This document shows, piece after piece, positions 2,701 through 24,698 of a stretch of DNA of 64,000 nucleotides; positions within the stretch are counted from its first letter, which is position 1, and every line of letters begins with the position of its first letter. Source of the stretch: an uncultured Gemmatimonadales bacterium (GTDB lineage Bacteria > Gemmatimonadota > Gemmatimonadetes > Gemmatimonadales > GWC2-71-9); NCBI GenBank assembly GCA_963795085.1, contig CAWCFX010000004.1:96001-160000 (forward strand), in the 5' to 3' direction. The position numbers and the translations under genes were made by a program. A model generated the notes under the pieces. The model was not told where the DNA came from and did no database searches. It was given only the letters and a program-made list of their open reading frames with translations.

Positions 2701-2714
2701 AAAAGGCGTCTCCC

Positions 2715-4494: not shown

Positions 4495-4504
4495 GACTCC
4501 TGCC

Positions 4505-7765: not shown

Positions 7766-10293
7766 TGTGACTCCCTTTCCTCTCGCCGTCGCACAAACTC
7801 ACGCCGGGCCTGGTCAATATGGTGCAGGACGACCGCCTTCTCGGCTTCGGTGTTCCAGCCGGCATGGGCCCGGGCCGCCTCCTCCAGGCGATCGATCCAG
7901 GCGATGAAGAACTCGGCATCCCGGCGAGACCGGATGGGCCGGTTTCCCAGCAGGATGTAGATCGGGCTGGTGGTGGCGAAGGGGTGGATGTCCAGGATCG
8001 GCTCTGCCGGCCGCTCGCTCCAGGCGCGCAGGGTGTACCATCCACTTTCCCTCACCGGCAATGCCAGGGAGGTGTCAATGCGCGAGCGGCTGCCTCCGAG
8101 GGGAATCCTGGCTGCCACTTCGCCGTTGCGCACGATCTCCAGGTGATCAACTGGAACGATGGATCGAAGCGACACGTCGAATCGGACACGGCGGGGCCGC
8201 TCCAGCCGAATCTCGCCGCCGATGTCGGTTCCCTCCGCCGCAAACGTGAGCAGCGGGCCGTTGGTCACAAAGGTCCGGCCCGACCGCAGCCCTTCCAGCC
8301 AGCGGCGGTAGTCGAGCGGCAGAGCCGACTTCACGTAAACCCTCGTGGTTCCCAGCGGGCCACGAAGGGAGGCGTAGTTGGTCATCGCATCGGTCCCCGC
8401 CCCGGCCGGGATCCGGAACCCGGTGTTGAGCAATCGGTACCAGACCCGGGCCGTCGAGAAATGATCACTGAAGCCCATGACCTCGTAGTAATCAAGCTTC
8501 CCCAGCGCTGCGTCGACCGGGAGGGCGTTGGTCAGAGGTACCTCGACCCGGGCGGGGTCGGGTAGTTCGTCGAACGGATGCACGTACCCGAACAGGGCTC
8601 CCTGTGCCCTGGCCAGGTCGCTGGCCGTGGCGTTGTCCGGGTAGAGGCTGGCGGCGGCCGTGTTGACGTATCCGGCATAGTCCGGCAACAGCAGGTTGCG
8701 GGTCAGTCCCAGAATGCCGGCGTGGCCCCAGAAGCTGGTGTGGTACTCCTGGTCGTGGGCCACCAGCAGGTCCGGGCCGGACACGGAATCCAGGCTCCCG
8801 GTGAAATAGGCGATGTCCGGAATCCGTCCCTCCTTATTCACTATCAGGTTCTCCACCACATGCAGCCCTTCGGCCCTGGCCTGGAGGGCCAGCGAAGCCG
8901 GGGTGGCGCGGTAGCTCCCGCCGTAGTTCATGTGGACATGAAGGTCCCCGCTGGTCCAGCCCTGGCTCGCCAGGTCAGCCAGGCGTTCCATTGGGGCATT
9001 GACCGTGACGGCGCGAGCCGGCCCTACCCGGACCGTCGTGCGAAACACCTTGAACTCCGGCCCCCGACTGATCTCCACCGACACCACTCCCGCCGGGAGC
9101 GTTAGTGTTGAGGACCCCGGGATGTGGAAGTACCCATACTCCATCCGTCGCGCGGCAGGGTTGAAGCCATCGTCCGCATGGTGCCAGGCATCCGGCGGAG
9201 CCGCGCTGCGGCCATCTTCGAGGCGCAGGGATACCCGGGCCGGCATCGGCAGGCCGGCCGGGCCGGTCACCGTGATTCGAAGTTGGCCGGTGGGAACCCG
9301 ATAGGCCAGCGTTTCTGGCACGACCCGGGTGCGAGCCCCGCCGGGAACCTGGAGCACCCACAGACTGGTATTGCCCCCCTCATTGGACACGTAGGCAATG
9401 TGGCGCCCGGCAGGAGACCACCGGGGCGCCGTGGCATCATGGTCCCCATAGGTCAACTGGAAGGCATCGCCGCCATCGGCCGGCACCAGCCAGAGTTGGT
9501 TCCACTGGCGGCCGAGGTAGGAGCTGTAGATGATGCGGCGGCCATCGGGCCCCCAGTCGGGCCGGGCCTTCCAGGTGGTCTCTTCATGGTGGACCGATCG
9601 CAGCGTCCCGCCAGCCCGGGCCGGCATCCGCCAGAACCCGCCGGTGCCCCAGACGCTTCCGCGGTTGGAAACCAGCAGGATCTCTTCGCCATCCGGCGAC
9701 CAGCTGGGCGACAGGTAGTGATCGAAAGCGCTGTAGTAATATCGAGGCAGCCCGCTGTCGCGATCCTCGGTGATCCGCGTGGTCCCGGCTACCCGTCCAT
9801 TGGCCAGGCGCGCCACGAACACGTGCCAGCGGCCTTCATGCCGGGTGCTGACGTACGCGATCCGGGTGCCGTCGGGTGACCATCGTGGTTCGACGTTCAC
9901 GGCGCTGTCCTCCAGCAGCGGCCGGGACACCAGGGTGGCAAGGTCGAGCAGCCACAGGCCCAGCGCATGGCCGCGATAGGAGACATACACCACGGATCGT
10001 CCGTCCGGCGACCAATCCGGCTGGTAGTCGTACCCGTCCCCCGCGGTGATCTGCTCCGCCCGCCCGCTGCCGATCCGCTGGCGCCACAGCGATCCGCCCA
10101 TGGAATAGATCAACGCCTGGCCATCCGGAGACCAGGTGGCCGAGCTGGGTCCGGTGGTCAACTGGGGCAGGTACATCTCGCGGAAGTAGTAACTGTGGGG
10201 AACCCGAATCTGGCTGAACACCGGCTCGCGCTGCGCCAGTACGGGTGAGGCGATTACTCCGAGGCCCAGCAGCAGGACCAGGTGACCCTTCAT
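7762..10293 (-). CDS. CehA/McbA-family (PHP-like) metallohydrolase with N-terminal TolB/PD40 beta-propeller
   Basis: Signal peptide; repeated WSPDG; SGDLHVH, QEYH, GH, YVHP, GAGTD metal-ligand motifs; TNGP. Confidence 0.8.
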   Translation of the reverse strand: MKGHLVLLLGLGVIASPVLAQREPVFSQIRVPHSYYFREMYLPQLTTGPSSATWSPDGQALIYSMGGSLWRQRIGSGRAEQITAGDGYDYQPDWSPDGRSVVYVSYRGHALGLWLLDLATLVSRPLLEDSAVNVEPRWSPDGTRIAYVSTRHEGRWHVFVARLANGRVAGTTRITEDRDSGLPRYYYSAFDHYLSPSWSPDGEEILLVSNRGSVWGTGGFWRMPARAGGTLRSVHHEETTWKARPDWGPDGRRIIYSSYLGRQWNQLWLVPADGGDAFQLTYGDHDATAPRWSPAGRHIAYVSNEGGNTSLWVLQVPGGARTRVVPETLAYRVPTGQLRITVTGPAGLPMPARVSLRLEDGRSAAPPDAWHHADDGFNPAARRMEYGYFHIPGSSTLTLPAGVVSVEISRGPEFKVFRTTVRVGPARAVTVNAPMERLADLASQGWTSGDLHVHMNYGGSYRATPASLALQARAEGLHVVENLIVNKEGRIPDIAYFTGSLDSVSGPDLLVAHDQEYHTSFWGHAGILGLTRNLLLPDYAGYVNTAAASLYPDNATASDLARAQGALFGYVHPFDELPDPARVEVPLTNALPVDAALGKLDYYEVMGFSDHFSTARVWYRLLNTGFRIPAGAGTDAMTNYASLRGPLGTTRVYVKSALPLDYRRWLEGLRSGRTFVTNGPLLTFAAEGTDIGGEIRLERPRRVRFDVSLRSIVPVDHLEIVRNGEVAARIPLGGSRSRIDTSLALPVRESGWYTLRAWSERPAEPILDIHPFATTSPIYILLGNRPIRSRRDAEFFIAWIDRLEEAARAHAGWNTEAEKAVVLHHIDQARREFVRRREERESQ

Positions 10294-11654
10294 CGCGCCT
10301 GGGTGCGCCGGCCGCGCAGGTAGAAGATCCCCCCGAACAGGATCGACCCGAGGGCGCCGCCCACCACCTTGAGTTCATAGGTCCACAGGTCGGTGGTGCC
10401 TGGCGGCGGAATCATGGCAAGAATCATCGCGAACGCCGTCAGGCAGAAACCGGCAGCGCCCACCAGGAGACGCCGGATGCCCAACCGTCCGGGACGAAGC
10501 ACGATGTAGGCGAGGAAGAGGTAGAGAAATGGAATGAAATACACCAGCACCATCGTACTCAGCAGGATGAGATACACCCGCTCTACCGTGCTGCCCTGGC
10601 CCAGCGAGGCAAGCAGCAGGAAGACCGTGGCCAGAGAGGCATGAATGAGAATGGCGACGTACGGGGTCTTCCAGGTCGGGTGGATGCGGCCGAACGCCGG
10701 CGGGAAATACCGGTCCAGGCCGATCATCAGCGCCACCCGTGCCGGCCCCACCAGCCAGGCGCCCACGTTGCCCAGGTTACCCACTACGTACATCGCCGCC
10801 GCCAGGGGGATCAGCCAGGCGACTCCCCCGGCGCCGGCCGCGATGGCCTGCAGGAACCCGGACACGACGTTGACCTCTCCGGCGGGCACCAGGTAGAGGA
10901 CCGAGGCCGTACCCAGGATGTACAGACCGGCGATCAGCGGTGCCGAGATATAGACGGACCGTGGCAGGTTGCGCGTGGGGTCGGCGGTCTCTCCGCCCAT
11001 GGATGGCGCCAGTTCCAGCCCCGCGAAGGCGAACGCCACCGAGGCCCACAGGTTGAGCTGGTTGAAATCGCTGAAGTCCGGCAGCAGCGACGGAGCGCTG
11101 AACGGCGTAGCCGGTGGTCCGTGGAAGGCCGCCCATGCACCGAGGCCGAGAAGGACGAGGCCAGGCAGGTACGAACCGATAGCGCCGATGTTCTGCAGCC
11201 ACTTGCCGGTGCTGAGTCCCACGATGTTGACGCCCGTCGCGAGCCAGAGCATGGCCAGGGTGGCGATGAAGACATAACCCCGGTTCTCCATCAGGCCGGA
11301 GCCCTCCTGGCCGGTCACGTACGTGGCGATCACCGCCGTGGACATGAGCAGGCTCGGTGGGTACAGCACGTTGTTGACCCAGTAACACCAGCCGCAGAGA
11401 AACCCGTGACCTTCGCCGAACGCGCGCTTGGTCCAGGCATAAATGCCACCCTGCTCTGGAAACCGTGCACCCAGGTCGGCCACGGCGAGGCCCTGGGGAA
11501 CGAAGAAGAGCAGGGCGGCCAGCAGCCAGAGGGTGAGCGCGCTCCATCCGTTAGACGCGGAGGTGGCAAGCCACCGAAGGCTGAGTACCGCGACCACATT
11601 GAAGAACACGAGGTCGCGGAGCCGAAGCGCGCGGGGAAGTTGCGGCGAGGTGAT
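10290..11654 (-). CDS. APC-family amino acid/polyamine permease
   Basis: About 12 hydrophobic segments; GGIYAW, FAFAGLE, E..DP.RNLPR, FGRIHP.WKTP motifs; start placed at a putative ATC codon (see findings), first canonical start is GTG 11609. Confidence 0.85.
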   Translation of the reverse strand: MTSPQLPRALRLRDLVFFNVVAVLSLRWLATSASNGWSALTLWLLAALLFFVPQGLAVADLGARFPEQGGIYAWTKRAFGEGHGFLCGWCYWVNNVLYPPSLLMSTAVIATYVTGQEGSGLMENRGYVFIATLAMLWLATGVNIVGLSTGKWLQNIGAIGSYLPGLVLLGLGAWAAFHGPPATPFSAPSLLPDFSDFNQLNLWASVAFAFAGLELAPSMGGETADPTRNLPRSVYISAPLIAGLYILGTASVLYLVPAGEVNVVSGFLQAIAAGAGGVAWLIPLAAAMYVVGNLGNVGAWLVGPARVALMIGLDRYFPPAFGRIHPTWKTPYVAILIHASLATVFLLLASLGQGSTVERVYLILLSTMVLVYFIPFLYLFLAYIVLRPGRLGIRRLLVGAAGFCLTAFAMILAMIPPPGTTDLWTYELKVVGGALGSILFGGIFYLRGRRTQAR

Positions 11655-11826: not shown

Positions 11827-12591
11827 CTATCCCAGGTAGAGCCGCTTCGGATCCAGTTGCTCCCGCAGCAGCGTCAGCTCCCGTTCCGTCGGAGGGGCGA
11901 CGCTCCCCGGTTCACTCCGGGACTGCAGGGCCCAGCCCACCCCCGCCCTGACCTCCTCCGCCGAGATCCCCGGATACAGTTTCGTCAGCACCAGCTCACC
12001 GGTCGCCGGGTCGGCCTCGAGAATCGCCTTGTCGGTGATGACCTTCACCGGGCCAGCGCCGGGCATCCCCAGGGCTGAGCGCGGCGTGCCATCCCGAAAA
12101 CGGTGGCCCGGGCTGGTGATGAAATCGACCTGTTCCGGAAACGCCCGGCGGTCCAGCCGGCTGATGATAAGCGTCCGTTGGGCGTGGATGGCGATCTCGG
12201 CGGCGCCGCCGCTCCCCGGCAGACGCACCTTGGGGTTGTCATAGGATCCGACCACGGTGGTGTTGATGTTGCCATACCGGTCGATCTGGGCGCCCCCCAG
12301 GAAGCCTACTTCGATCCGGCCGTTCTGCAGGATCATCTGAAATACCTGGGCCATCCCGCACACCATGAGCGAACCGGTGACCAGGGCCGGGTCTCCAATC
12401 GAGACCGGGACCCGCTCCGGCACCGCGCCCACCGCCCCCGACTCGTAGATCAGCACCAGGTTGGGGGCATGGATCGCACGAGCCAGGTTGCAGGCGAGAT
12501 TGGGGAGGCCAATCCCGACAAAAACGACCTCGCCGTCGCCCAACTCCCGGGCCGCAACGGCGGTCATCATTTCCGCAGGGGTATAGGTCAT
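11827..12591 (-). CDS. Family I CoA-transferase beta subunit (CatJ/GctB type)
   Basis: FVGIGLP, catalytic LIYESG, GFLGGAQIDRYGNINTT, RLPGSGGA, VDFITSPG. Confidence 0.88.
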   Translation of the reverse strand: MTYTPAEMMTAVAARELGDGEVVFVGIGLPNLACNLARAIHAPNLVLIYESGAVGAVPERVPVSIGDPALVTGSLMVCGMAQVFQMILQNGRIEVGFLGGAQIDRYGNINTTVVGSYDNPKVRLPGSGGAAEIAIHAQRTLIISRLDRRAFPEQVDFITSPGHRFRDGTPRSALGMPGAGPVKVITDKAILEADPATGELVLTKLYPGISAEEVRAGVGWALQSRSEPGSVAPPTERELTLLREQLDPKRLYLG

Positions 12592-12623
12592 GATCTCGGG
12601 TTTCCCATAAAGCACTGTGCGAG

Positions 12624-12662
12624 CCTTCCCTCCAACCCGGAGAGGGGGATAGGGGGTGAGGA
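12624..12662 (-). repeat. REP-like intergenic element (CCTCACCCCC..CCCCTCTCC...GGAGGG type)
   Basis: Minus strand has a pyrimidine-rich CCTCACCCCC..CCCCTCTCC arm followed by GGAGGGAAGG, able to fold back; lies between the two CoA-transferase genes. Confidence 0.4.
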
Positions 12663-12663
12663 C

Positions 12664-13587
12664 CTAGAACCCATAATTCACCGGGGAGCTCAGCCGCTCG
12701 CTCGCGTGGAGGCGTGCGGCCAGCCCGGGTTGCCGGGCCATGTAGGCCGCTCGGTCGGGAACGTCGTACACAAATTCCTGCAGGTAGCTCTTGAGTTTCG
12801 ACGGATCGCGAGAGACCGGCTCCCACGCCACGTAGAAGTCATTGTCCCGGTCATAGTAACCCTGGGCGTAGGAGGGGTGTGCGCCCCACGGCTCAACCAC
12901 CACGGAGTCCACAATCATGCCCGGAATGAGTGTCCGGTTGGGATCCGACCGGATCACCGATTCCTCGACCAGTTCCTCCACCACCACGATCACCCGCTTC
13001 GAGGCAAAGGCGGCTTCCTGCTGGACGCCGAGCAGGCCCCACACCTGGGTGTTTCCCTGGGTGTCGGCCCGCTGGGCATGGATAATGGTGACATCGGGAT
13101 TGAGGGCCGGTACCGTCGCGAGCACTTCACCGGTGTAGGGACAGGTCACCGTGCGAATCAGCGGATTCGCACTGGCCAGATCCGTCCCCATGTAGTCCCG
13201 GAGCGTCCAGAAGGGAAGCCGTGCGGCGCCGGCGCTCAGCCGCGCCACCATGCCGAAGTGGGAATACTCCTCGATTTCGAGTGGCTGGTCGGCCTTGCCC
13301 TCCACCGCCCGCCGGAAGGCGTGCAGCGACCCCGCCCCCGGATTCCCCGCCCAGCTGAAGACCAGCTTGCGGGCTACCCCGGCGGCAATCATCTGGTCGT
13401 AGATCAGATCGGGAGTGAGCCGGCAGATGGTCAAGTCCTTCCGGCGCTGCCGAATGATCTCGTGCCCCGCCGCAAAACAGATCAGGTGGGTAAATCCCTC
13501 GATCACCACGGTATCACCGTCGTGGACGTGGCGGGCGATGGCATCCTTCAGGGACACCACCTTCGATAGCGCCGGTTCTTTATGCAT
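12664..13587 (-). CDS. Family I CoA-transferase alpha subunit (CatI/GctA type)
   Basis: IEGFTHLI..AAGHEIIRQ, TPDLIYDQMI, FSWAGNPG, EEYSH, CPYTGE, HAQRAD..GN, GAHPSYAQGYYDRD. Confidence 0.88.
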   Translation of the reverse strand: MHKEPALSKVVSLKDAIARHVHDGDTVVIEGFTHLICFAAGHEIIRQRRKDLTICRLTPDLIYDQMIAAGVARKLVFSWAGNPGAGSLHAFRRAVEGKADQPLEIEEYSHFGMVARLSAGAARLPFWTLRDYMGTDLASANPLIRTVTCPYTGEVLATVPALNPDVTIIHAQRADTQGNTQVWGLLGVQQEAAFASKRVIVVVEELVEESVIRSDPNRTLIPGMIVDSVVVEPWGAHPSYAQGYYDRDNDFYVAWEPVSRDPSKLKSYLQEFVYDVPDRAAYMARQPGLAARLHASERLSSPVNYGF

Positions 13588-13593
13588 GGATAA

Positions 13594-14286
13594 TCAGTTG
13601 GAGTTTCCCGCCCCTTCGACCGCTTCGATCTCGGCGATCAGGCGGTCGCTGGCGCCAGCGAGGTGTTCGGTGAGGAGCGTTTCCGCCCCGGCCGCGTCGT
13701 GGGCGACGAGAGCGGCCAGCAAGGCCCGGTGCTCGGCATCGAACACACTGCGGTACTTGAGCATCAGGTCGTAGGATAGCCAATACCGGTCCACCCGGTG
13801 CAGAAGTTCGGTGATCAGCTCCTGCAGGCGGGGCCGCTGGTCGAGATCATAGATCAGGGTGTGGAACTCCATGTCCAGCGACCCCCAGCTGCCGCCGTCG
13901 GTGGCCTGCTCCGCCGTATCCAGCACCGCTTGAGCCCGGGCCAGGGTCTCGGCGGACAGGGCCGGCGACGAGCGGCGGATCGCTCCAGACTCCAGCAGTG
14001 AACGTATCTCGTAGATCTCCCGGATCTCCTCGGTGGAGAGCGCGCTGACCGTGGCCCCTCGGTTCGGCTGGTAAGTGACCAGGCCTTCCGATTCCAGTTG
14101 GCGCAGCGCCTCGCGGACGGGAATGTGGCTCACCTGCAGGTTCGCCGCGATCTCCGCCTGGGGGAGCGGCTGCCGAGCCTTGAGCCGCCCGGTTGTGATG
14201 GCCTCCCGAAGGGCGGCGGCAACCACTTCGTGAGTGGCCTGGCGACCGGGACGTCGGACCCTACCTAAAGCAGTGGTAATACTCAA
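13594..14286 (-). CDS. GntR-family regulator (FCD domain)
   Basis: N-terminal wHTH (VSHIPVREALRQLESEGLV), EIYEIRSLLE, FH, EH and H motifs of the FCD domain. Confidence 0.9.
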   Translation of the reverse strand: MSITTALGRVRRPGRQATHEVVAAALREAITTGRLKARQPLPQAEIAANLQVSHIPVREALRQLESEGLVTYQPNRGATVSALSTEEIREIYEIRSLLESGAIRRSSPALSAETLARAQAVLDTAEQATDGGSWGSLDMEFHTLIYDLDQRPRLQELITELLHRVDRYWLSYDLMLKYRSVFDAEHRALLAALVAHDAAGAETLLTEHLAGASDRLIAEIEAVEGAGNSN

Positions 14287-14332
14287 AGCTTGCTCTTCCG
14301 ATCAGTTGAGAAGGACCGTACGGTGACTGCGC

Positions 14333-14361
14333 TTGCAACAGAATATATTATATATTATCTT
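14333..14361 (+). promoter_or_regulatory. sigma70 promoter for the aminomutase operon with a palindromic operator in the spacer
   Basis: TTGCAA (14333-38), 17 nt, TATCTT (14356-61); perfect inverted repeat AATATAT-T-ATATATT at 14342-14356, probable GntR site. Confidence 0.7.
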
Positions 14362-14434
14362 CCATTCAGTCAACAGCCACCGCGGACCCAATCACGCGGC
14401 GGTTCCTCCTGTTTCCTGTTTCGACGGGTTACCC

Positions 14435-15796
14435 ATGAGCGATTCAACGACGGTCGAAACCATCCAGCAGCCGATCCAGTATCCGCCGGCCCGCGAGTAT
14501 GTGGAACCGGATTGGACCCGGCTGCCCGGATTCCGTGGTGCTTCCCGGGAAGACTGGGAAAGCGCCCTCTGGCAGCGAAAGAACACGGTCAAGAACCTGA
14601 AGGAGCTCAAGGCGGTGCTGGGCCCCCTCCTTCCGGAAACCCTGTTCGCGAGCATCGCTCGCGACCAGGAGGAGCGGGCGACCATGTCCATGCTATTGCC
14701 GCCCCAGATGATCAATACCATGAACACGGAGAATCTCTGGGAGGACCCGGTGCGCCGCTACATGGCGCCTGCCCTGGACGACCGGCGGACTGACTGGCCC
14801 AACCATCCCATGGCCTCGCGGGACAGTCTGCATGAGGCCGAGATGTGGAAAGTGGAAGGCCTCACCCATCGCTATCCCACCAAGGTCCTGGCGGAATTGC
14901 TATCGACCTGTCCCCAGTACTGCGGGCACTGCACCCGCATGGACCTGGTCGGCAATGACGTGCCCCAGGTGGACAAGCTCAAGTTCGTGACGCCCCAGAA
15001 GAGCCGCCACCAGCAGATCCTGGAGTACCTCCGCCAGACGCCCTCGGTGCGGGACGTCGTCGTATCCGGCGGCGATATCGCCAACTTGCCGATCACGGTC
15101 CTGGAGCCGTTCATCAGCGCCCTGCTCGATATTCCGAGCATCCGGGATATTCGGCTGGCCAGCAAGGGCCTGATGGGTATTCCCCAGCATTTCCTGCAGG
15201 AGTCGGTCGTCGATGGGATGGCCCGCCTGGCCAGGAAGGCGATCGAGCGGGGCGTGGACCTGGCGCTGCATACCCACGTCAACCACGCGCAGCAGGTCAC
15301 GCCGCTGGTGGGCCGGGCCGCCCAGAAACTGCTGGAGATCGGCTTCCGCGATGTCCGGAACCAGGGTGTGCTTCTCCGCGGGGTGAACACCACTCCGCAG
15401 GACCTGCTCGAACTCTGCTTCATGCTGCTCGATCACGCCAAGATCATGCCCTACTACTTCTACATGTGCGACATGATTCCGAATTCGGAGCACTGGCGGC
15501 TCGGCGTCTTTGAGGCGCAGCAGCTGCAGCATGACATCATGGGGTACCTCCCCGGTTTTGCCACGCCGCGGATCGTGTGCGACGTGCCCTTCGTCGGCAA
15601 ACGCTGGATTCACCAGCTGGCGGACTACGACCGGGAAAAAGGTATCAGCTACTGGACCAAGAACTACCGCACCGGCATCGAGATGGACGATCCCGAGGCG
15701 CTCAACCGGAAATACGAGTATTACGATCCGATTTACCTCCTGCCGGAATCGGGGCAGGAATGGTGGCAGAAACAGTACCCTCAAGGCGGGAGGTAA
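14435..15796 (+). CDS. kamA: KamA-family radical SAM/PLP 2,3-aminomutase (lysine- or arginine-type)
   Basis: GLTHRYP, CPQYCGHCTR radical SAM motif, SGGD, THVNH, NQGVLLRGVN, PYY..MCD, PLP-lysine in DVPFVGK. Confidence 0.88.
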   Translation: MSDSTTVETIQQPIQYPPAREYVEPDWTRLPGFRGASREDWESALWQRKNTVKNLKELKAVLGPLLPETLFASIARDQEERATMSMLLPPQMINTMNTENLWEDPVRRYMAPALDDRRTDWPNHPMASRDSLHEAEMWKVEGLTHRYPTKVLAELLSTCPQYCGHCTRMDLVGNDVPQVDKLKFVTPQKSRHQQILEYLRQTPSVRDVVVSGGDIANLPITVLEPFISALLDIPSIRDIRLASKGLMGIPQHFLQESVVDGMARLARKAIERGVDLALHTHVNHAQQVTPLVGRAAQKLLEIGFRDVRNQGVLLRGVNTTPQDLLELCFMLLDHAKIMPYYFYMCDMIPNSEHWRLGVFEAQQLQHDIMGYLPGFATPRIVCDVPFVGKRWIHQLADYDREKGISYWTKNYRTGIEMDDPEALNRKYEYYDPIYLLPESGQEWWQKQYPQGGR

Positions 15797-15799
15797 AGC

Positions 15800-17155
15800 A
15801 TGGTGACCCAGACCGAACCCCAGACGAAAGCCCGGGAGACCTCTGCGCCGGAGTACCCCCGGATCCTGACGCCGCCGCCCGGGCCCCGGGGCCGCGCCAT
15901 AGTGGACCAGGACGCCGAGTGGACCTCGACATCCTATATCAAGGAGTATCCGCTCGTCTTCGCCGGCGGGAAGGGCGCCATGGTCGAGGACGTGGACGGC
16001 AACCGGTACATCGATTTCATGGCCGGCATCGCCGTTTCGGCCACCGGGTACAACCACCCGAAGGTCGTGGCGGCCATCCAGGACCAGGCCGCCCGGTTTC
16101 TGCACGCCTGCGGCACCGACTTCTACTTCGAGAATTTTGCCCGGCTCGCCGAGCGGTTGGCCCGCTCGGTACCGGGTCCGAACAAGAAACGGGTCTTCCT
16201 GACCAACTCGGGCACCGAGGCGGTGGAGGGCGCCATCAAACTGGCCCGGAACCACACCGGCCGCACCGCGCTGATCGCGTTCCACGGCTCGTTTCATGGC
16301 CGCACCTACGGCGCCATGAGCCTGACATCCAGCAAGACCAAGCAGCGCAAGGGATTCGGGCCGTTCCTGCCGGAGGTGTACCACGTACCCTACCCGGCCC
16401 CATACCGGCTGGGCGGTGACGGAGCGGCCAGCGCCGTGTCCCTGAATGCACTGCAGGAGATGTTCGATCGCCAGCTGAGTCCCACCGACGTCGCCGCCAT
16501 CTTCGTCGAACCGGTCCAGGGCGAGGGCGGCTACGTCCTCCCGCCGGCCGGCTTCCTCCGTTCGCTGCGGGAGCTCTGCGACCAGCACGGCATCCTCCTG
16601 GTAGCAGACGAGGTGCAGTGCGGGGTCGGCCGCACCGGGAAGATGTGGGCCTGCGAATGGGACGGGGTGGAGCCCGATATCCTGTGCACCGCCAAGGGGC
16701 TCGGCAGCGGCATGCCAATCGGGGCGTTCATCGCGAAGGAGTCGGTGATGACCTGGGAGTCGGGGGCTCACGGCTCCACCTTTGGAGGCAACCCGGTCGG
16801 TTGCGCCGCGGCCCTGGCCACTCTGGATATCGTCGAGGAATCCCTGCCCCACGTCCTCGCCATGGGCGACCGGATCCTCGCCGCCGCCCGGGTACTCCAG
16901 CAGAAGTATCCGGTCATCGGCGATGTCCGGGGCAAGGGCCTGATGATCGGCATCGAGTTTGTGAAGGACCGGAAGACCAGGGAACCCTACCCCGAGCTGG
17001 TGGACCGGATCACCGAGCGTGCCTTCGCCAAGGGCCTTCTCCTCCTCGGCTGCGGCAAGAGCGCTTTCCGCCTGGCGCCACCCCTGGTCCTGAACGAGTA
17101 CGATGTGGACACCGGGATGGCGATACTGGGAGAGTGCTTGGGGGAGGAGAAGTGA
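15800..17155 (+). CDS. Class III PLP aminotransferase (GABA/omega-amine type)
   Basis: DVDGNRYIDF, NSGTEAVEGA, SFHGRT, EPVQGEGGY, DEVQCG.GRTG, TAKGLG, HGSTFGGNP. Confidence 0.9.
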   Translation: MVTQTEPQTKARETSAPEYPRILTPPPGPRGRAIVDQDAEWTSTSYIKEYPLVFAGGKGAMVEDVDGNRYIDFMAGIAVSATGYNHPKVVAAIQDQAARFLHACGTDFYFENFARLAERLARSVPGPNKKRVFLTNSGTEAVEGAIKLARNHTGRTALIAFHGSFHGRTYGAMSLTSSKTKQRKGFGPFLPEVYHVPYPAPYRLGGDGAASAVSLNALQEMFDRQLSPTDVAAIFVEPVQGEGGYVLPPAGFLRSLRELCDQHGILLVADEVQCGVGRTGKMWACEWDGVEPDILCTAKGLGSGMPIGAFIAKESVMTWESGAHGSTFGGNPVGCAAALATLDIVEESLPHVLAMGDRILAAARVLQQKYPVIGDVRGKGLMIGIEFVKDRKTREPYPELVDRITERAFAKGLLLLGCGKSAFRLAPPLVLNEYDVDTGMAILGECLGEEK

Positions 17156-17552
17156 GAAGTGAGCCGTGAAAAGTGCTCAGAAAGTGAAATTGGAAGGGGC
17201 GCTCGATGGTGGAGCGCCTTTTCAGCGTCCTGCACTTTCTCGCTGTGCGGCAGGTTTGGCAGCATTGCAGAACGCGTTACATGCTAGTGGACTGTCTCAC
17301 ATGTTTCGATAGTCGCTGTCGAACACCTCGCCACGGAGCCACGAAGCACACGGAGGTAGCACGGAGCACCCACCGTAGCGGGCTCCCAATACCTTGGTGG
17401 CAGCATGAAGCTTCTTCGTGCTGCCGTGAACTTCGTGACTCCGTGGTGAATCAGTTCTTGCCCACCTGATCGGGACCTTGTATACAGTCCACTAGTCTTG
17501 GACCATGAGGAACCATCGCAGCTTGTGGCCTGGCCCCCCTCTCACTTCTCAC
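17152..17552. repeat. Intergenic segment bounded by inverted GTGAGAAGTGAG repeats, with an internal CACGGAG/CACGAAG inverted repeat
   Basis: GTGAGAAGTGAG 17152-63 vs CTCACTTCTCAC 17541-52; CCACGGAGCCACGAAG 17331-46 vs CTTCGTGACTCCGTGG 17431-46 (15/16 complementary). Confidence 0.7.
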
Positions 17553-19132
17553 CTCTCCCTTTCTGTTACTACTGTCCTGCTCTGCTCCCGGACAAACTGC
17601 TGCACATAGTACGGGCCGCAGCCGCCCTTTCCGCTCGAACCTGATCCCTTCCACCCCGTGAAGGGCTGGGCTCCGGGCCAGGCGCCGGTGGTGGCACCGC
17701 TCCGCTTATTGGCATAACAGACGCCCGCCTCGATCTCGTCGAAGAAACGGTCTACTTCCTCCGGGTCCTCCGAGAAGATTCCCGCCGTCAAACCATACTC
17801 CGCCTTGTTGCTTTCGGCGATCGCCTGGTCCAGGGAGTCAACCTCGGCGACAGCCAGAAAGGGAACAAACAGCTCCTCGAAAAAGAGCGAGCTGGACAGC
17901 GGCACCCGCGCCACGGTGGGCGCCACGTAGTGGCCCTTGTCGAAGCCTCCGCCTTTCAGGCGATCACCACCGGCCAGGATGGTCCCCTCTTTCTTCGCCT
18001 GCTCCACCGCGGCCTCCCACCGCTTGACCGCTTTCTGGTTGATCACCGGGCCGAAATAGACATCCCGCTCGGTGGGATCGCCCATCTTCATGCCCTTCAT
18101 CTTGTCCAGCAGCTTGGCCACAAACGGCTCAACTATGGTTTTGTGGACATACACGCGGGAGGTGGCGCTGCACTTCTGGTTCTGCAGCCCAAAGGCCGAC
18201 TTCATGACTCCTTCGGCCGCCGCGTCGAGGTCCGCTGACTCCATCACGATCGCCGGGTTCTTGCCCCCCAGCTCAAGCAGGCACGGCTTGATCCACTTCC
18301 GGCTGATCCCCTGGTGAATCCGAAGCCCCACCGCCTTGGACCCGGTGAAGACGATACCGTCCACCCCGGGATGCTGCCATAGCGCATCTCCCATGACCGA
18401 CCCGTGGCCGGACAGGAAGCTGAACACCCCTGTGGGCATCCCGGCGTCGCGATAGACCTCGTACAACTGCCAGCCGGTAAGCGGGGTATCCTCCGCCGGC
18501 TTGTACACCACCGCGTTGCCGGTCATCAGCGCCGCGGAGGACATCCCGGTGGATAGCGCCAACGGGAAGTTGAACGGTGCGATACACGCGAAGACCCCGT
18601 AGGGCCGCTGCACGTCGGTGTTGCGCTCGATCGGCGTCAGATTGGCCATCGGACGGACGAAGCCGTTAGCGTCCTCCACCTGCTGGGCGTAGTAGTCGAT
18701 CAAGTCCGCCGCTTCTTCCGCGTCCCCCATGGACTCCAGCCGGCTCTTGCCCACCTCCAGGCTCATGGTGGCGGCGAGGTCGTACTTCCGGTCCCGGATG
18801 ATCTCCGCGGCGCGCCGGATGATCGCCAGCCGCTCCTGCCAGGGCCGGCGACCCCAGCCCTTCTGGGCTCGGCGGGCGGCCTGGACGGCCAGGTCCACCT
18901 GCTGGGGACCCGCTGCGGCAAAGGTGCCGATCACCACGGACGTGTCGATGGGGGAGGTGTCCACGATGGGATCGCCTCCGCCGCTCCCGGGTACCTCCCG
19001 GCCGTCGATCAGCAGCGGGTAGGTCTTCCCGAGCTGGGACCGCAACCGGGTGAGCGCCTCGTCGAAGCGACGGTGGAAGTCGTCCAGGTCGACGTTGGTG
19101 GAGGTGTAGGTGACTTTCTGGGTAGTAGCCAT
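17549..19132 (-). CDS. Aldehyde dehydrogenase, P5C-dehydrogenase (RocA)-like
   Basis: IAPFNFP, KPAEDTP, FTGS, LELGGKN, QKCSA (catalytic Cys), EELF, YGLTAG, TTGA..GAQPF.GWK.SG. Confidence 0.88.
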   Translation of the reverse strand: MATTQKVTYTSTNVDLDDFHRRFDEALTRLRSQLGKTYPLLIDGREVPGSGGGDPIVDTSPIDTSVVIGTFAAAGPQQVDLAVQAARRAQKGWGRRPWQERLAIIRRAAEIIRDRKYDLAATMSLEVGKSRLESMGDAEEAADLIDYYAQQVEDANGFVRPMANLTPIERNTDVQRPYGVFACIAPFNFPLALSTGMSSAALMTGNAVVYKPAEDTPLTGWQLYEVYRDAGMPTGVFSFLSGHGSVMGDALWQHPGVDGIVFTGSKAVGLRIHQGISRKWIKPCLLELGGKNPAIVMESADLDAAAEGVMKSAFGLQNQKCSATSRVYVHKTIVEPFVAKLLDKMKGMKMGDPTERDVYFGPVINQKAVKRWEAAVEQAKKEGTILAGGDRLKGGGFDKGHYVAPTVARVPLSSSLFFEELFVPFLAVAEVDSLDQAIAESNKAEYGLTAGIFSEDPEEVDRFFDEIEAGVCYANKRSGATTGAWPGAQPFTGWKGSGSSGKGGCGPYYVQQFVREQSRTVVTERER

Positions 19133-19135
19133 GAT

Positions 19136-20467
19136 TCAGTCCATCGCCTTCAGGGTTTGCGAGAACAGGGCGATCATTTCGTCAATCTGGTCTTCGGTCA
19201 CGATGAATGGAGGCGCCAGCATGACCAGGTCGCCGTTGGTGCCGTCGGCCTGCCCGACATTGGCCCAGACGATCAGGCCGTTCGCCCGGGCGGCGTCGGT
19301 GAAGCGCTCGGCGAATTTCCGGGCCCGCGGCATCGGAGCCTTGGTCGCCTTGTCGGCCACGAACTCGATCCCGGCCAGCAGGCCCCGGCCCCGGACGTCT
19401 CCCACCAGGGGCAAGTCCAGCAGGGCGCGCAATCGCTCATGAAACACCGGCCCGATGACGGCGCAGCGCTCGATCAGTCTGTGCTTCTCCAGGTACTGAA
19501 TGGACGCCAGCCCGGCCGCACACAGCACCGGGTTGTGGGAGAATGTCTGTGCGTGCATGAAGTCGCCGGACCCCGCAACCAGAGCATCCAGGATCCTGCG
19601 GCCGGTCACGATCGCCGACAGCGGAGCGTAGCCGCCGCTGAGCCCCTTGCCCAGGATCAGGATGTCGGGGGTGACGCCGAACTGCTCGATGGCCGTGTAG
19701 GTCCCGGTCCGGCCGGCTCCGACCAGCACCTCATCCGCGATGAACAGGACATTGTGCCGGTCGCAGATGGCCCGGATCTCCTTGAAATACCCCGGCGGCG
19801 GCACCGAGGCACCGGTCGAGGATCCCCCAATCGGCTCGGCGATGAACGCCGCGATGTTCATCGCGCCCTGCTGCAGGATCATGGTCTCCAGCGCCTCGCC
19901 GGTGCAGCCCAGGCATTCCGGCTCGCCGCCGCCGCACTTGCATCGGTACGGATAGGGCGCGGGAATTCGGACGACGTCCACCATCCACTGCCAGTACATC
20001 AGCTTGTAATGCTCCCGGGCCGAAGCGGAGAGGGCCAGCAGGGTGTTGCCATGGTAGGATGGCTGCAGGGCGATGATCTTGTGCTTCGACGGCTGCCCTG
20101 CTTCCACCCAGTACTGCCGGGCCAGCTTGAGCGCCGCCTCCACCGCCTCCGACCCGCTGCTCAGGAAATAGGAATACTCCAGGCCGGGACCGCACCGGCG
20201 GGCCAGTTCCGTGCTCAGGTCCTCCACGGCCTGGTGGGTGAAAGCGGTTCCATTGATGTAGCCGACCCGGCCGGCCTGCGCCGCCATGGCCGCGCCGATC
20301 TCCATGACCCCATGCCCCAGGTTGGCCACGAATGCCCCCCCGGAACCGTCCAGGTACCGCTTTCCGGTCTCGTCGTACAGGCAGCACCCTTCCCCCCGCA
20401 CGATGAGCGGGTGATCCCGCTGAAGGCGGCGGTAGAAAACGCTGGAATTTGGATAGGCGTGTTTCAT
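19136..20467 (-). CDS. Class III PLP aminotransferase (BioA/beta-amino acid-like)
   Basis: YLDGSGGA, SSGSEAVEAALK, SYHGNT, AEPIGG, ADEV..G.GRTG, LGKGLSGGY; Cys-rich loop YRCKC...ECLGC. Confidence 0.88.
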   Translation of the reverse strand: MKHAYPNSSVFYRRLQRDHPLIVRGEGCCLYDETGKRYLDGSGGAFVANLGHGVMEIGAAMAAQAGRVGYINGTAFTHQAVEDLSTELARRCGPGLEYSYFLSSGSEAVEAALKLARQYWVEAGQPSKHKIIALQPSYHGNTLLALSASAREHYKLMYWQWMVDVVRIPAPYPYRCKCGGGEPECLGCTGEALETMILQQGAMNIAAFIAEPIGGSSTGASVPPPGYFKEIRAICDRHNVLFIADEVLVGAGRTGTYTAIEQFGVTPDILILGKGLSGGYAPLSAIVTGRRILDALVAGSGDFMHAQTFSHNPVLCAAGLASIQYLEKHRLIERCAVIGPVFHERLRALLDLPLVGDVRGRGLLAGIEFVADKATKAPMPRARKFAERFTDAARANGLIVWANVGQADGTNGDLVMLAPPFIVTEDQIDEMIALFSQTLKAMD

Positions 20468-20534: not shown

Positions 20535-21782
20535 ATGCGATTTCTCCTGCTCCTGGTGCTCGCGTCTCTCCCCCTCCGGCCGGCGGCGGCTCAGACCCCG
20601 GAACGCGCCCGGGACCTGGGTGTCCCCCTCGATGGCGTTCCCGGCCGCCTCAACGCCATCACCGACGTGCCCGGCGTTCGGGTCGGCCACACCACCATCA
20701 TCCGGGGCAGCGGGGACCTGGTGCCCGGGCAGGGGCCGGTGCGCACCGGGGTCACCGCGGTGTTCCCGACCGGGGACTCCATCCTCCGGCCAGTCTTTGC
20801 GGGGTGGTTCAGCCTCAACGGCAACGGGGAGATGACCGGGACCACCTGGATCGAAGAATACGGAGAACTCCTCTACCCGGTCCTGATCACCAACACCAAC
20901 AGCGTCGGGGTCGCCCGCGACGCGGTCATCGAGTGGGGCCGCGAACGGCTTGCCCCCGACGCCTGGAACTGCTGTCTCCCGGTGGCCGCGGAGACCTGGG
21001 ACGGCGACCTGAACGATATCTTCGGCTTTCATGTCACCCGCGACGATGTATTCAACGCGCTGAACACCGCCCGCGCCGGGCCGGTCGCGGAGGGCAACGT
21101 CGGAGGCGGGACGGGCATGCAGTGTCTCGGGTTCAAGGGAGGCATCGGCACGGCGTCGCGGCGGGTGGGAATCGCCAGCGACACTTTTACGGTTGGTGTC
21201 CTGGTCCAGTGCAACTTCGGCAGCCGGAACCAGCTTCGAGTCGCCGGCATTCCAGTCGGCCGGGAAATCACGGCGCCTCCCGACTGCTACGACTCAGACA
21301 GCCCCCTCGACTCTGACCGGGCGGCGCAGCGCTGCCCGCGCGAGCAGGGCCGGGCGCCCGCCCCGCGTGAGCCCGATGGGTACCTGCCAGCCAGCTACGA
21401 GGATGACCACGGCTCCATCATCGTGGTGATTGCCACCGATGCTCCCCTGCTTCCCCACCAGCTCAAGCGCATCGCCAAACGCGCCTCGCTCGGCGTCGCC
21501 CGCGCCGGCGGCGTCGCCGGCAGCGGGTCAGGGGACATATTCCTCGCCTTTTCCACCGTCCCCGCCGAGTCCTCCGATTCGAGCATCCTGACCCAGCGCA
21601 TGGTGCACGACCGCCGCATCAATACCCTGTACGAAGCCACCGTTCAGGCCACCGAAGAGTCAATTCTCAACGCCATGCTCGCCGCCCGCACCATGACGGG
21701 CGCCAACTACTACCGCGTTACCGCCTTGCCGCACGAGGAGTTGCGGTCGGTGCTGGCGCGCTACAACCGGCTCACCCGTTGA
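20535..21782 (+). CDS. DmpA/P1-family (S58) aminopeptidase, secreted
   Basis: Signal peptide; RARDLG, NAITDVPGVRVGH, NGNGEMTG, ETWDG.LND, GNVGGGTGM, G|SIIVV autoprocessing site, GSGDIFLAFST. Confidence 0.9.
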   Translation: MRFLLLLVLASLPLRPAAAQTPERARDLGVPLDGVPGRLNAITDVPGVRVGHTTIIRGSGDLVPGQGPVRTGVTAVFPTGDSILRPVFAGWFSLNGNGEMTGTTWIEEYGELLYPVLITNTNSVGVARDAVIEWGRERLAPDAWNCCLPVAAETWDGDLNDIFGFHVTRDDVFNALNTARAGPVAEGNVGGGTGMQCLGFKGGIGTASRRVGIASDTFTVGVLVQCNFGSRNQLRVAGIPVGREITAPPDCYDSDSPLDSDRAAQRCPREQGRAPAPREPDGYLPASYEDDHGSIIVVIATDAPLLPHQLKRIAKRASLGVARAGGVAGSGSGDIFLAFSTVPAESSDSSILTQRMVHDRRINTLYEATVQATEESILNAMLAARTMTGANYYRVTALPHEELRSVLARYNRLTR

Positions 21783-21897: not shown

Positions 21898-23027
21898 CTA
21901 CAGGCCGGATCCTTCAATAGCTTCGAGAAACGAGCGGTCCCACGCCGCGGGCACGCTCTCCCGGGGAGAGTAGGGTCCCGGCTCGTAGGCCAGCGAAGAG
22001 ATTCCCGCGAAGCTCAATTCGGTGATATGCCAGTCCTGGCGATTGGTCGTGTCCCAGAACTCCACGGCATCGTCCGGGTGGAAGTCCGGCCGCGCGAACG
22101 CGTCGGGGTGGAACAGCCACTCGCACACCACCCGGGTGCGCCCCGCGGACTGAGGCCAGAGCGTGTAGTACACCACGTAGTCGGGGTGGATGCTCAACAT
22201 CAGGTTCGGAAAGATGGTGTAGTAGTACGCCCGCTGCAGATCCTCGCCCGACAGGTCACCCAGCGGCAGGCCGCAGGCACGGCCGCTCATGGTCATGCTG
22301 CGGTTGGGCGCCGAGATAACCATGTAGCCGCCGAGCACATGCCCCTCGGTCAGGTCGTTGGCGCCGCTGGTGTACGGCATCAGGCTGGAAAGCTCCGGGT
22401 GGATCACCGGGCAGTGCAGGCATTCCGAATAGTTCTGAAAAACCAGTTTCCAGTTGGAGTTGACGTCGTACTCGATCCGCCGGCCGGCCTTGAGCCGGGG
22501 CAGCGCAAAACGGCTGAACCGTCCAACCAGCGGCGCCAGCGCGACCTCGAACGGTTCAGGCTCGGCCCCCAGGTGGAGGAAGATGAAGCCCTCCCACTCG
22601 TGTACCGCGACCGGCTTGAGCGGGTAATCGGCCTTGGCGAAATCCACCGCTTCCTGCATGTGCGGCGCCCCGACCAGCCGGCCATCGGTCGCATAGGTCC
22701 AGGCGTGGTAGGGACACTGGATGGTCTCGCCGAAGCGGCCCTGCGCGGATTCGCAGATCCGGGTGCCACGGTGCCGGCACGTATTGTAAAAGGCGCGCAC
22801 CTGTCCGCCCTTGCGGTCGCGGAGAACAATGATGCTCTCCTTGCCGATGGCCTGCAGGAAATATTCTCCCGGCTCCGGATGGCGGCGGACCGGCCCACGC
22901 AGAACCAGTGCCTGGTCAGCAGGTACTCCTGCTCCCGCACGAAGACATCCGGCGAGGTGTAGTAATGCCCCGGCATGGTTCGGGCACCCGGCTGGAACGA
23001 CTTCACGGTGGAGACGAACGATCCCAT
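21898..23027 (-). pseudogene. Rieske non-heme iron oxygenase alpha subunit (choline monooxygenase/GbcA-like), split by a 1-nt frameshift near 22877
   Basis: N-terminus (YYTSPDVF..E...HWFCVGRS) lies in one frame; PEPGEYF, CRHRG, CPYHAW, NWKL..NYSECLHC..IHP, QD lie in another. Confidence 0.8.
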
Positions 23028-23044
23028 GGTATGGTTCTCCTCGG

Positions 23045-24634: not shown

Positions 24635-24657
24635 CCCGGTGAGGACGATTCACACGC

Positions 24658-24698
24658 CACTCGGCACTCGGCACTCTGCACTCTCCCCTCTCCCCCTC
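24658..24698. repeat. Short heptamer tandem repeat between the two flavoprotein genes
   Basis: CACTCGG CACTCGG CACTCTG CACTCTC, degenerating into CCCTCTC. Confidence 0.6.

Follow-up and report, generated by a model that had tools for sequence, protein, structure and literature searches.

What pathway is encoded where a gene of the lysine 2,3-aminomutase (KamA) family lies among genes for two aminotransferases, an aldehyde dehydrogenase (ALDH), and a two-subunit coenzyme A (CoA) transferase? The question is raised by a 64,000-nucleotide stretch of DNA (hereafter the window) from an uncultured Gemmatimonadales bacterium, corresponding to positions 96,001 to 160,000 of contig CAWCFX010000004.1 in assembly GCA_963795085.1. 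In our labelling, in which G denotes a sampled genome and L a fetched locus, this genome is G000 (3.89 Mb in 6 contigs, 93% complete) and the window is G000:C4:96001-160000. Among public genomes, Gemmatimonadota metagenome-assembled genomes are its nearest kin. An initial annotation of the window had proposed a lysine catabolic route running through beta-lysine, 3-aminoadipate, and 3-oxoadipate. Our analysis points to a modified reading in which the cluster would be a catabolic module converting beta-lysine (3,6-diaminohexanoate) into 3-oxoadipyl-CoA, onto which a lysine 2,3-aminomutase and a regulator may have been grafted, letting L-lysine itself feed in. As judged from sequence, a beta-lysine to 3-oxoadipate route built from known enzyme families is a plausible new one, with a likelihood that falls just short of even.

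Protein families were assigned with Pfam (E 0.001) and with NCBIfam models at their curated cut-offs, together with matches to solved structures and identities from tblastn and blastp. The Pfam scan covered 40 of the 46 open reading frames (ORFs) called in the window, the six left out being 81-122 amino acids long. The ORF list and the family scans located all seven genes of the cluster as stated in the initial annotation:

11827..12615, minus strand: CoA-transferase subunit B, 262 amino acids (PF01144; 1poi_B, 3e-44)
12664..13587, minus strand: CoA-transferase subunit A, 307 amino acids (PF01144; 1poi_A, 2e-39)
13594..14286, minus strand: GntR/FCD transcription regulator (PF00392 and PF07729)
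14342..14358, no strand: inverted repeat ATATAT-N-ATATAT between gntR and kamA, operator-like
14435..15796, plus strand: KamA-family radical S-adenosylmethionine and pyridoxal phosphate (PLP) aminomutase, 453 amino acids (TIGR00238, AblA, and 2a5h matches)
15800..17155, plus strand: class III aminotransferase AT1 (NF004426, 592 bits; cut-off 552)
17549..19132, minus strand: ALDH resembling pyrroline-5-carboxylate (P5C) dehydrogenases (NCBIfam L-glutamate gamma-semialdehyde dehydrogenases, 427 and 415 bits; cut-offs 648 and 660)
19136..20467, minus strand: class III aminotransferase AT2 (PRK07483, 450 bits; cut-off 485)

As the initial annotation had described, kamA and its adjoining aminotransferase gene diverge from an operon of gntR and the two transferase genes, and the second aminotransferase gene and the ALDH gene (17549-20467) converge on them. 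The spacer between gntR and kamA measures 148 nt, AT1 starts 3 nt past the kamA stop, and the ALDH gene starts 3 nt past the end of AT2. The mechanical ORF of kamA opens at TTG 14333, but alignments with orthologues begin at residues 2-12 of a shorter version and so favour ATG 14435 as the start. For AT2, such alignments begin at about residue 17 of the longer ORF, making ATG 20467 the likely start.

The proposed route would open with KamA, which would turn L-lysine into beta-lysine. The omega-transaminase AT2 would then take off the C6 amino group to give 3-amino-6-oxohexanoate, which can cyclise to a five-membered, P5C-like pyrroline, and the P5C-dehydrogenase-like ALDH would convert this to 3-aminoadipate. 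AT1, a relative of gamma-aminobutyrate (GABA) aminotransferases, would remove the C3 amino group to yield 3-oxoadipate, from which the CatIJ-like CoA-transferase would form 3-oxoadipyl-CoA; these two steps may be swapped, the transamination then acting on the CoA ester. Lastly, a PcaF/PaaJ-like thiolase encoded on another contig would release succinyl-CoA and acetyl-CoA. A diamino-monocarboxylate becomes an oxo-dicarboxylate by precisely this set of reactions, two transaminations and one aldehyde oxidation. In genomes without a linked kamA, beta-lysine may come from a canonical KamA encoded elsewhere, or from outside by way of a permease and secreted hydrolases.

Sequence comparison places the window's KamA in a distinct subfamily, a clear but distant relative of known KamA enzymes. 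The protein does not reach the cut-off of TIGR00238 (172.9 bits against 199.2) and stays far under those of the equivalog models for AblA (170 against 525), the arginine (130 against 600) and glutamate (125 against 650) enzymes, and EpmB (124 against 369); on the AblA-like-2 model it scores within 124-130 bits. It has no Pfam match at E 0.001, neither to Radical_SAM nor to LAM_C (PF12544). Its match to 2a5h, the lysine 2,3-aminomutase of Clostridium subterminale (5e-42, 147 bits), preserves what it has in common with KamA and AblA: the CxxxCxxC and SGGD motifs, a lysine at the position of the PLP-binding lysine, and both substrate-binding Asp residues, which align with those of YMCD and VCDVP. 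These two Asp bind the epsilon-ammonium group of lysine and are replaced in glutamate 2,3-aminomutase. Their presence, noted in the initial annotation, is borne out both by this alignment and by the invariance of D346 and D383 in 81 of 81 aligned sequences (the window protein and 80 orthologues). The motifs CPQYCGHC (CxxxCxxC), SGGD, YMCD, and CDVPxVGK are equally invariant, as are 124 of the 453 positions overall. Unlike canonical KamA and AblA, the window protein carries an N-terminal extension of about 60 residues plus insertions, reads DVPxVGK where canonical enzymes have DAPGGGGK, and has no counterpart of the C-terminal domain of 2a5h with its zinc-binding Cys and LAM_C match. Because its C-terminal part contains no Cys past residue 382, the C-terminal zinc site of 2a5h cannot exist here. 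Taken as a whole, the protein is probably a lysine 2,3-aminomutase. A relative is encoded in 587 genome stretches; the best 80 of these are 66-82% identical to the window protein and come from at least four phyla, namely Gemmatimonadota, Myxococcota, Acidobacteriota, and Actinomycetota.

The CoA-transferase does not reach the PcaIJ/ScoAB models TIGR02429 and TIGR02428 (43.7 bits against 128.5 and 48.2 against 243.55), and its best solved structure is glutaconate CoA-transferase (1poi_A, 1poi_B). The catalytic Glu of subunit B is kept, E58 in IYESG aligning with the ESG Glu of 1poi_B. An assignment to the glutaconate GctAB type in place of a CatIJ-like one, drawn from these structures and NCBIfam, was dropped, as the nearest annotated homologues lie in pca operons. 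When subunit A was compared by tblastn with annotated plasmids, homologues appeared in 167 records and none reached 60% identity; the 40 listed ranged from 50 to 57%. In all three regions inspected, the protocatechuate operons of a Pseudomonas veronii plasmid, Azospirillum oryzae, and Streptomyces rimosus, both subunit genes stand directly before pcaF, and subunit B of S. rimosus is annotated as 3-oxoadipate--succinyl-CoA transferase. Identity of the window's transferase to these is 50-55% for subunit A and 48-50% for subunit B, whereas the pca-operon A subunits are 66-78% identical to one another; the transferase of a corresponding module in Cystobacter fuscus resembles the window's (62% identity) more than the pca type (45-50%). 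By sequence, then, the module transferase would be a sister subgroup of the CatIJ-like pca-operon enzymes and not nested among them. The CatIJ-type label of the initial annotation is ambiguous: the closest annotated kin belong to pca operons, yet the scores fall below the PcaIJ/ScoAB cut-offs and the relationship is one of sister groups. CatIJ of Pseudomonas sp. B13 is reportedly a two-subunit transferase of about 280 and 260 amino acids.

With the end steps of the beta-ketoadipate pathway (CatIJ and PcaF) the system thus shares a two-subunit family I transferase with its catalytic Glu and 48-55% identity to pca-operon subunits, and also a PcaF-like thiolase in the genome. This thiolase, on contig 2, has 3-oxoadipyl-CoA thiolases, pcaF among them, as its best families (534 and 527 bits, just under the cut-offs), and next to it are genes for a StyD-like ALDH and for an enoyl-CoA hydratase with a further match to PaaF; the initial annotation had placed the thiolase step outside the cluster. 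The window differs from that pathway in that its transferase, of the sister subgroup, has neither a thiolase gene nor an aromatic-ring gene beside it; indeed the window as a whole holds no thiolase gene. Throughout G000, no PcaIJ-type transferase exceeded 60 bits, and no convincing pcaHG, pcaB, pcaC, or pcaD was found (best matches 25-32% identical; the catechol branch was not tested). Consequently, a 3-oxoadipate transferase here would have no protocatechuate pathway to serve, and its assignment to that pathway was rejected.

AT1 groups with 2-oxoglutarate-dependent GABA and ornithine aminotransferases, and its best solved structure is 7vno (3e-113), which we take to be an ornithine delta-aminotransferase. 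AT2 groups with omega-transaminases; its best solved structure is 3i4j, followed by amine/omega-, putrescine, polyamine, and beta-alanine(:pyruvate) transaminases. For the ALDH, the best solved structures are P5C dehydrogenases and the best NCBIfam families agree (TIGR01237, 415 bits; cut-off 660), as the initial annotation had proposed. The enzyme is a paralogue and not the housekeeping enzyme, since a true P5C dehydrogenase is encoded at C1:135903-137369 (TIGR01236, 815 bits; cut-off 614), which ruled out the ALDH for that role. The initial annotation had given the C6 amine to AT1 and the C3 amine to the second transaminase, an order that may be the wrong way round. AT2 and the ALDH form a conserved pair and AT2 is an omega-transaminase, which argues for the terminal amine as its target. 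In related operons AT1 and the transferase gene overlap by a few bases, and 3-aminoadipate is a gamma-substituted GABA, which argues for the C3 amine as the target of AT1. We therefore infer that AT2 acts at C6 and AT1 at C3.

Linkage of these genes was examined in an even draw of 201 Gemmatimonadota genomes, G000 counted in, with presence defined as at least 77% identity for the window-type KamA, 56% for AT2, and 74% for transferase subunit A. These genomes are kin and not independent, and the counts take in the unpublished G182 as well as, for the KamA family, G057 and G157, removal of which shifts them by at most 3. The window-type KamA occurred in 14 genomes, AT2 in 51, and transferase subunit A in 45. 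Every one of the 14 genomes with the window-type KamA carried AT2 and 13 carried the transferase; in 12, kamA and the transferase gene share a contig and are no more than 10 kb apart. In the loci surveyed, GntR orthologues (61-68% identity) occurred only where the window-type KamA was present. Additionally, the ATATAT-N-ATATAT element was kept in 7 of 7 gntR-kamA spacers, with one substitution in L014, and a GTCAA about 14 nt downstream was likewise conserved; the spacers are otherwise divergent. GntR thus probably binds this repeat between the divergent operons, and the operator first proposed near 14342-14356 gains support from its conservation. AT1 orthologues are 73-78% identical to the window's in loci with the window-type KamA and 64-68% in operons without it.

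A second linked lineage lies in the Myxococcota. Among the best 80 KamA loci, one Myxococcales metagenome-assembled genome (MAG), L076, has AT2, ALDH, and an FAD oxidase. Here 8 kb separate the window-type KamA (67% identity) from AT2 (57%) and ALDH (54-63%), and the interval holds the FAD oxidase, 55% identical to the second such protein of the window (FADox2), together with a fused transferase and a thiolase. The fused transferase passes both PcaIJ/ScoAB cut-offs (290 bits against 243.55 and 216 against 128.5), and the thiolase beside it has 3-oxoadipyl-CoA thiolases as its best families (525 and 513 bits). Locus L102 likewise carries a fused PcaIJ-type enzyme and a PcaF-like thiolase in place of the module transferase. 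In a sample of 301 Myxococcota genomes, AT2 relatives were found in three further members. In G220, kamA comes just before a cluster of MttB-like, AT1-like (50%), GcvT-like, FAD oxidase, fused transferase, thiolase, AT2, and ALDH genes; in G488, it lies 21 kb from a FADox-FADox-AT2-ALDH operon on the same contig. L076, G220, and G488, in which the window-type KamA shares a contig with AT2/ALDH orthologues at 1-21 kb from the cluster, are related MAGs and were counted as one lineage. C. fuscus carries the full module at 1.93 Mb and the window-type KamA at 5.56 Mb.

These results suggest that the pathway starts from 3,6-diaminohexanoate and ends in 3-oxoadipyl-CoA because the window's transferase is of the 3-oxoadipate kind, the Myxococcota clusters pair a 3-oxoacid transferase with a PcaF-like thiolase, and two transaminases accompany one ALDH; that this ALDH is a paralogue of P5C dehydrogenase and that a lysine-type aminomutase is repeatedly linked point the same way. 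We know of no other natural diamino acid that such an enzyme set would turn into 3-oxoadipate. The chemical scheme of the initial annotation survived all the tests that were run and gained support from the transferase, the Myxococcota clusters, the ALDH, and the thiolase. What did not stand is the view of the enzymes as one conserved unit.

This last point opens the case against the proposed route. In 71 of the 80 closest KamA loci of other genomes, none of the partner genes was found, in a tally accompanied by an ORF-level check; AT1 was present in 8 (all Gemmatimonadota, 75-78% identity), the transferase in 6, the ALDH in 5, and AT2 in 4. The 46 neighbour proteins drawn from 15 of the 71 partner-less loci shared no theme, and a conserved neighbourhood of the KamA subfamily beyond the two linked lineages, sought in these 15, was not found; exceptions were L073 with a lysine 5,6-aminomutase alpha gene, Myxococcaceae loci with second KamA-like genes, and L010 with an ATP-grasp gene. 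Conversely, 32 of the 45 transferase-bearing genomes had no window-type KamA, and 13 had it. Outside the two linked lineages, only C. fuscus, one of four genomes with an unlinked window-type KamA, carried the module, and the other three had no close AT2. A KamA-family gene of any type occurred in 118 of the 201 genomes (42 of 45 with the transferase against 76 of 156 without), and within the window's family in 37 of 40 with the module against 45 of 57 without, so that the association of KamA with the module across genomes is weak. Moreover, the identities of 45-55% to pca-operon transferases, against 66-78% among those, leave room for another acid as the substrate of the sister subgroup, and the additional MttB-, GcvT-, and FAD-oxidase genes of the Myxococcota clusters could mean that these clusters act on a different amine. 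The five enzymes do not form one conserved unit.

What is conserved is a smaller module. Among 25 regions fetched and tabulated by tblastn, a plain co-directional operon of AT2, ALDH, AT1, and transferase subunits A and B was present in nine Gemmatimonadota loci and in C. fuscus. These operons include neither kamA nor gntR, a further point against the proposed route, and three loci (L087, L089, and L091) have AT2-AT1-CoAT_A-CoAT_B with no ALDH gene between the aminotransferases, which counts in the same sense. In the nine Gemmatimonadota operons, a permease gene and/or a hydrolase gene comes next; in the window, these follow the transferase genes as:

10290..11609, minus strand: APC-family amino-acid permease (PF13520, 164 bits; best NCBIfam GadC-like, 201 bits, cut-off 650)
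7762..10293, minus strand: TolB-like beta-propeller fused to a CehA/McbA-family metallohydrolase, the last gene of the transferase operon (PD40 repeats; NF038032, 229 bits, cut-off 80)

Permease orthologues (55-65% identity) hold the same position in 9 of the 25 fetched loci, and TolB-CehA orthologues (57-65%) come after the transferase or permease genes in most related loci. The permease may bring in lysine or beta-lysine. In 45 of the 201 sampled genomes, AT2-ALDH-AT1-CoAT(A,B)-permease-hydrolase forms an operon in its own right. Since it is complete without kamA and gntR in most genomes, the module would be the older unit and these two genes an addition. Indeed, in L099-L101 and in the window, gntR and kamA stand between AT1 and the transferase genes, with an inversion, and look like a later insertion at that site. 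In L096 and L103, AT2 and the ALDH are found by themselves or in other surroundings.

An operon that is whole without kamA in most genomes could instead serve diamines or omega-amino acids in general, with kamA a mere neighbour. In such a pathway, AT2 and the ALDH would act on a diamine, AT1 on the resulting omega-amino acid, and the transferase on a dicarboxylate, as in cadaverine to 5-aminovalerate, glutarate, and glutaryl-CoA, or putrescine to GABA. The solved relatives of AT2 (putrescine, polyamine, and beta-alanine:pyruvate transaminases) and of AT1 (GABA and ornithine aminotransferases) suit this explanation, as do the occurrences of the AT2-ALDH pair alone or elsewhere and the structural match of the transferase to glutaconate CoA-transferase, an enzyme that also accepts glutarate. 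However, a single ALDH would have to handle two different aldehydes, and the nearest annotated kin of the transferase are the pca-operon enzymes at 48-55% identity. Furthermore, the Myxococcota 3-oxoacid transferase and thiolase suit a 3-oxoacid and not glutarate, and a general diamine pathway leaves unexplained the insertion of kamA with its regulator in one lineage and the placement of kamA beside AT2 and ALDH in another phylum. We consider this explanation unlikely.

A different role for KamA itself is suggested by the genes that accompany it elsewhere. Canonical KamA proteins (357-383 amino acids; TIGR00238, 276-290 bits; AblA, 424-438 bits; both Asp present) were found in 9 of 10 module genomes without the window type and in 3 of 5 module-free genomes checked. 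The canonical kamA of G114 and that of G084 are located 1-4 kb past the module. The genomes listed with a window-type KamA have one KamA-family match each, and the two types never occur together in the sample. Two genes for ATP-grasp proteins resembling D-Ala-D-Ala ligases, together with a 165-amino-acid gene, precede kamA in many genomes of the family (L120, L122, L123, L003, L010, and L093). In the three closely related genomes of L003, L010, and L093, it is the window-type KamA that directly follows the two ATP-grasp genes and the small gene, and these flanking genes are 72-89% identical to those ahead of the canonical KamA in G198. Both the exchange of one type for the other in the same slot and the failure of the two to co-occur argue that they catalyse the same reaction. 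The trio is also present in G000 at C4:89389-91972 with no kamA adjoining; it ends approximately 4 kb ahead of the window start, and about 12 kb separate it from the module and 18 kb from the downstream kamA. The only KamA-family gene of this genome is the window's.

KamA could therefore be mainly biosynthetic, supplying beta-lysine to the two ATP-grasp ligases, with its place in the operon reflecting shared regulation of supply and turnover. That both KamA types directly follow the trio in relatives, that G000 retains the trio with its sole KamA-family gene in the window, and that 45 of 57 family genomes without the module have KamA-family genes are all in keeping with such a role. On the other hand, the 3-nt gap between kamA and AT1 suggests co-transcription, the conserved operator region is shared with the transferase operon, and the presence of kamA in a catabolic operon in 12 of 14 genomes would be unexpected for a purely biosynthetic gene; both roles can, moreover, coexist. 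A mainly biosynthetic KamA is accordingly rated as rather improbable.

Two further observations concern the surroundings of the window-type KamA. In Myxococcaceae, it adjoins a second KamA-like gene (L021:11296-12528, L026:7155-8519, and L019:11323-12084); the copies in L021 and L026 have LAM_C and both Asp, and that of L019 shows only a weak Radical_SAM match. In a Streptosporangiaceae MAG (L073:7066-10011), it adjoins the gene of a 981-amino-acid protein whose C-terminal 509 residues match D-lysine 5,6-aminomutase alpha (795 bits), the sole classical beta-lysine context among the 15 scanned neighbourhoods.

The aminomutase might also act on ornithine or arginine, for instance leading from beta-ornithine through beta-glutamate to 3-oxoglutarate. 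The protein does fall under every equivalog cut-off, with the arginine model at 130 bits against 170 for AblA, the best relative of AT1 is 7vno, presumably an ornithine delta-aminotransferase, and the ALDH and permease resemble the RocA and RocE types. Nevertheless, the lysine-type models score highest, and the slot exchange with canonical AblA-like KamAs speaks for a common reaction. Additionally, a C5 route would end in 3-oxoglutaryl-CoA, a poor fit to a PcaF-like thiolase and a CatIJ-like transferase, and 3-amino-5-oxopentanoate cannot form a P5C-like ring. This alternative is very unlikely.

The proposed beta-lysine to 3-oxoadipyl-CoA route was also compared with the known fates of beta-lysine. 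With lysine fermentation (KamA, KamDE, Kdd, Kce, and Kal/Kat) it shares the first reaction, and in the Kat variant a class III aminotransferase removes the beta-amino group (PMC3149608). It differs in that G000 has neither the B12-dependent 5,6-aminomutase nor Kce, and in that the C6 chain would stay whole and enter as 3-oxoadipyl-CoA, whereas fermentation cleaves it to C4 and C2. Lysine 5,6-aminomutase alpha was not found in the 93%-complete G000 by tblastn with the L073 protein, and this search carries the point, as a PF09043 search of the same genome gave no match and its control gave none either. BKACE (kce) was likewise not found in G000, with a control that matched in Deinococcus. The absences that the initial annotation had reported for the window thus extend across the genome for 5,6-aminomutase and kce, and the known beta-lysine routes were set aside on these grounds; kdd was not searched by itself. 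Nor was any GNAT, EpmA-like, or EF-P domain found in the 40 of 46 window ORFs scanned, in line with the earlier statement that the window has no epmA/efp or ablB. AblA-AblB, which makes N-epsilon-acetyl-beta-lysine, and EpmB-EpmA, which beta-lysylates EF-P, have in common with the window a KamA-family enzyme making beta-lysine; they differ from it in the GNAT and EpmA-like domains missing from the scanned ORFs and in the low score on the EpmB model. A known route, be it the fermentative one through 5,6-aminomutase, Kdd, and Kce, which KamA does open and of which L073 holds the 5,6-aminomutase alpha beside a window-type KamA, or the aerobic one by N6-acetylation and cleavage reported for Pseudomonas B4, is scarcely credible here given a genome with neither 5,6-aminomutase alpha nor BKACE and a window with no GNAT domain in the ORFs scanned.

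The SpuC-KauB, GabT-GabD, and RocD-RocA pairs follow the same logic of an omega-transaminase and then an ALDH, with members of the same families and often an APC permease. Here, by contrast, two transaminases have a single P5C-dehydrogenase-like ALDH in common, a 3-oxoadipate-type CoA-transferase is part of the operon, and the ALDH is not the housekeeping P5C dehydrogenase.

Beyond AT2, the window continues with possible accessory genes:

20535..21782, plus strand: secreted S58 (DmpA/BapA-family) peptidase, possible accessory (PF03576, 378 bits)
21898..26451, minus strand: genes for a Rieske GbcA-like oxygenase and for two FAD amine-oxidase/CrtI-family paralogues, perhaps accessory and upstream (family scans)

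S58 is the peptidase family to which beta-aminopeptidases belong, and its presence at the module here and in two further loci speaks for the proposed route. The peptidase gene diverges from AT2, and its translation from ATG 20535 opens with a hydrophobic, signal-like stretch. In L087 (at about 5900) and L098 (about 4240-5483), homologues with 58-59% identity adjoin the operon or are part of it, the one in L098 standing between the transferase and TolB-CehA genes; none was found in the best 80 KamA loci. Just past the other end of the transferase operon, window positions 4505-7765 encode a 1086-amino-acid fusion of amidohydrolase, PD40 propeller, and S9 peptidase, and positions 25-4031 encode a TonB-dependent receptor with a weak SusD-like match that alone is below the Pfam threshold. 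The whole neighbourhood looks given over to peptide uptake and breakdown. FADox2-like genes (55-56% identity) adjoin AT2-ALDH in the Myxococcota loci L076, L102, and L103, and in Myxococcota MAGs (L103:4244-12793, L102, and L105) DAO, GcvT-like, and MttB-like genes come ahead of FADox-FADox-AT2-ALDH. Speculatively, the Rieske, FADox, MttB, and GcvT genes may have to do with N-demethylation, perhaps of methylated amines such as methyl-lysines.

To our knowledge, about nine lysine degradation routes are recognised, none of them passing through 3-aminoadipate or into the 3-oxoadipate branch. In the literature searched, no route of this kind was described, the beta-lysine work there being concerned with osmolytes and fermentation. 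The name 3-aminoadipate did not appear in it, variants occurring only in unrelated work, which also tells against the proposal. For CatIJ, nothing specific emerged, and PMC5380842 bears only on IpdAB.

The fuller picture would be a B12-independent, possibly aerobic lysine route by way of 3-amino-6-oxohexanoate, 3-aminoadipate, and 3-oxoadipate or its CoA ester, fed by a KamA subfamily that has no zinc site or LAM_C domain and replaces the canonical enzyme in some lineages, with the kamA-less operon serving in beta-lysine scavenging. We put this combination forward tentatively and regard it as more doubtful than the core route. If it is true, amino-acid catabolism would be joined to the end of the beta-ketoadipate pathway by way of intermediates found in no pathway of the literature searched, and beta-lysine would gain a catabolic fate in aerobic soil bacteria of the Gemmatimonadota and Myxococcota. 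The secreted S58 and TolB-CehA hydrolases would then free beta-lysine from peptides, such as the products of ATP-grasp ligases or streptothricin-kind antibiotics. A function would also be assigned to a large, conserved, and unnamed KamA subfamily, as well as to class III aminotransferase, P5C-dehydrogenase-like ALDH, and CatIJ-like subfamilies that automatic annotation leaves generic, and enzymes that make or use 3-aminoadipate and 3-oxoadipate from lysine would be of interest for adipate-type chemicals. The case would also illustrate that an older operon can take up a feeder enzyme along with its regulator.

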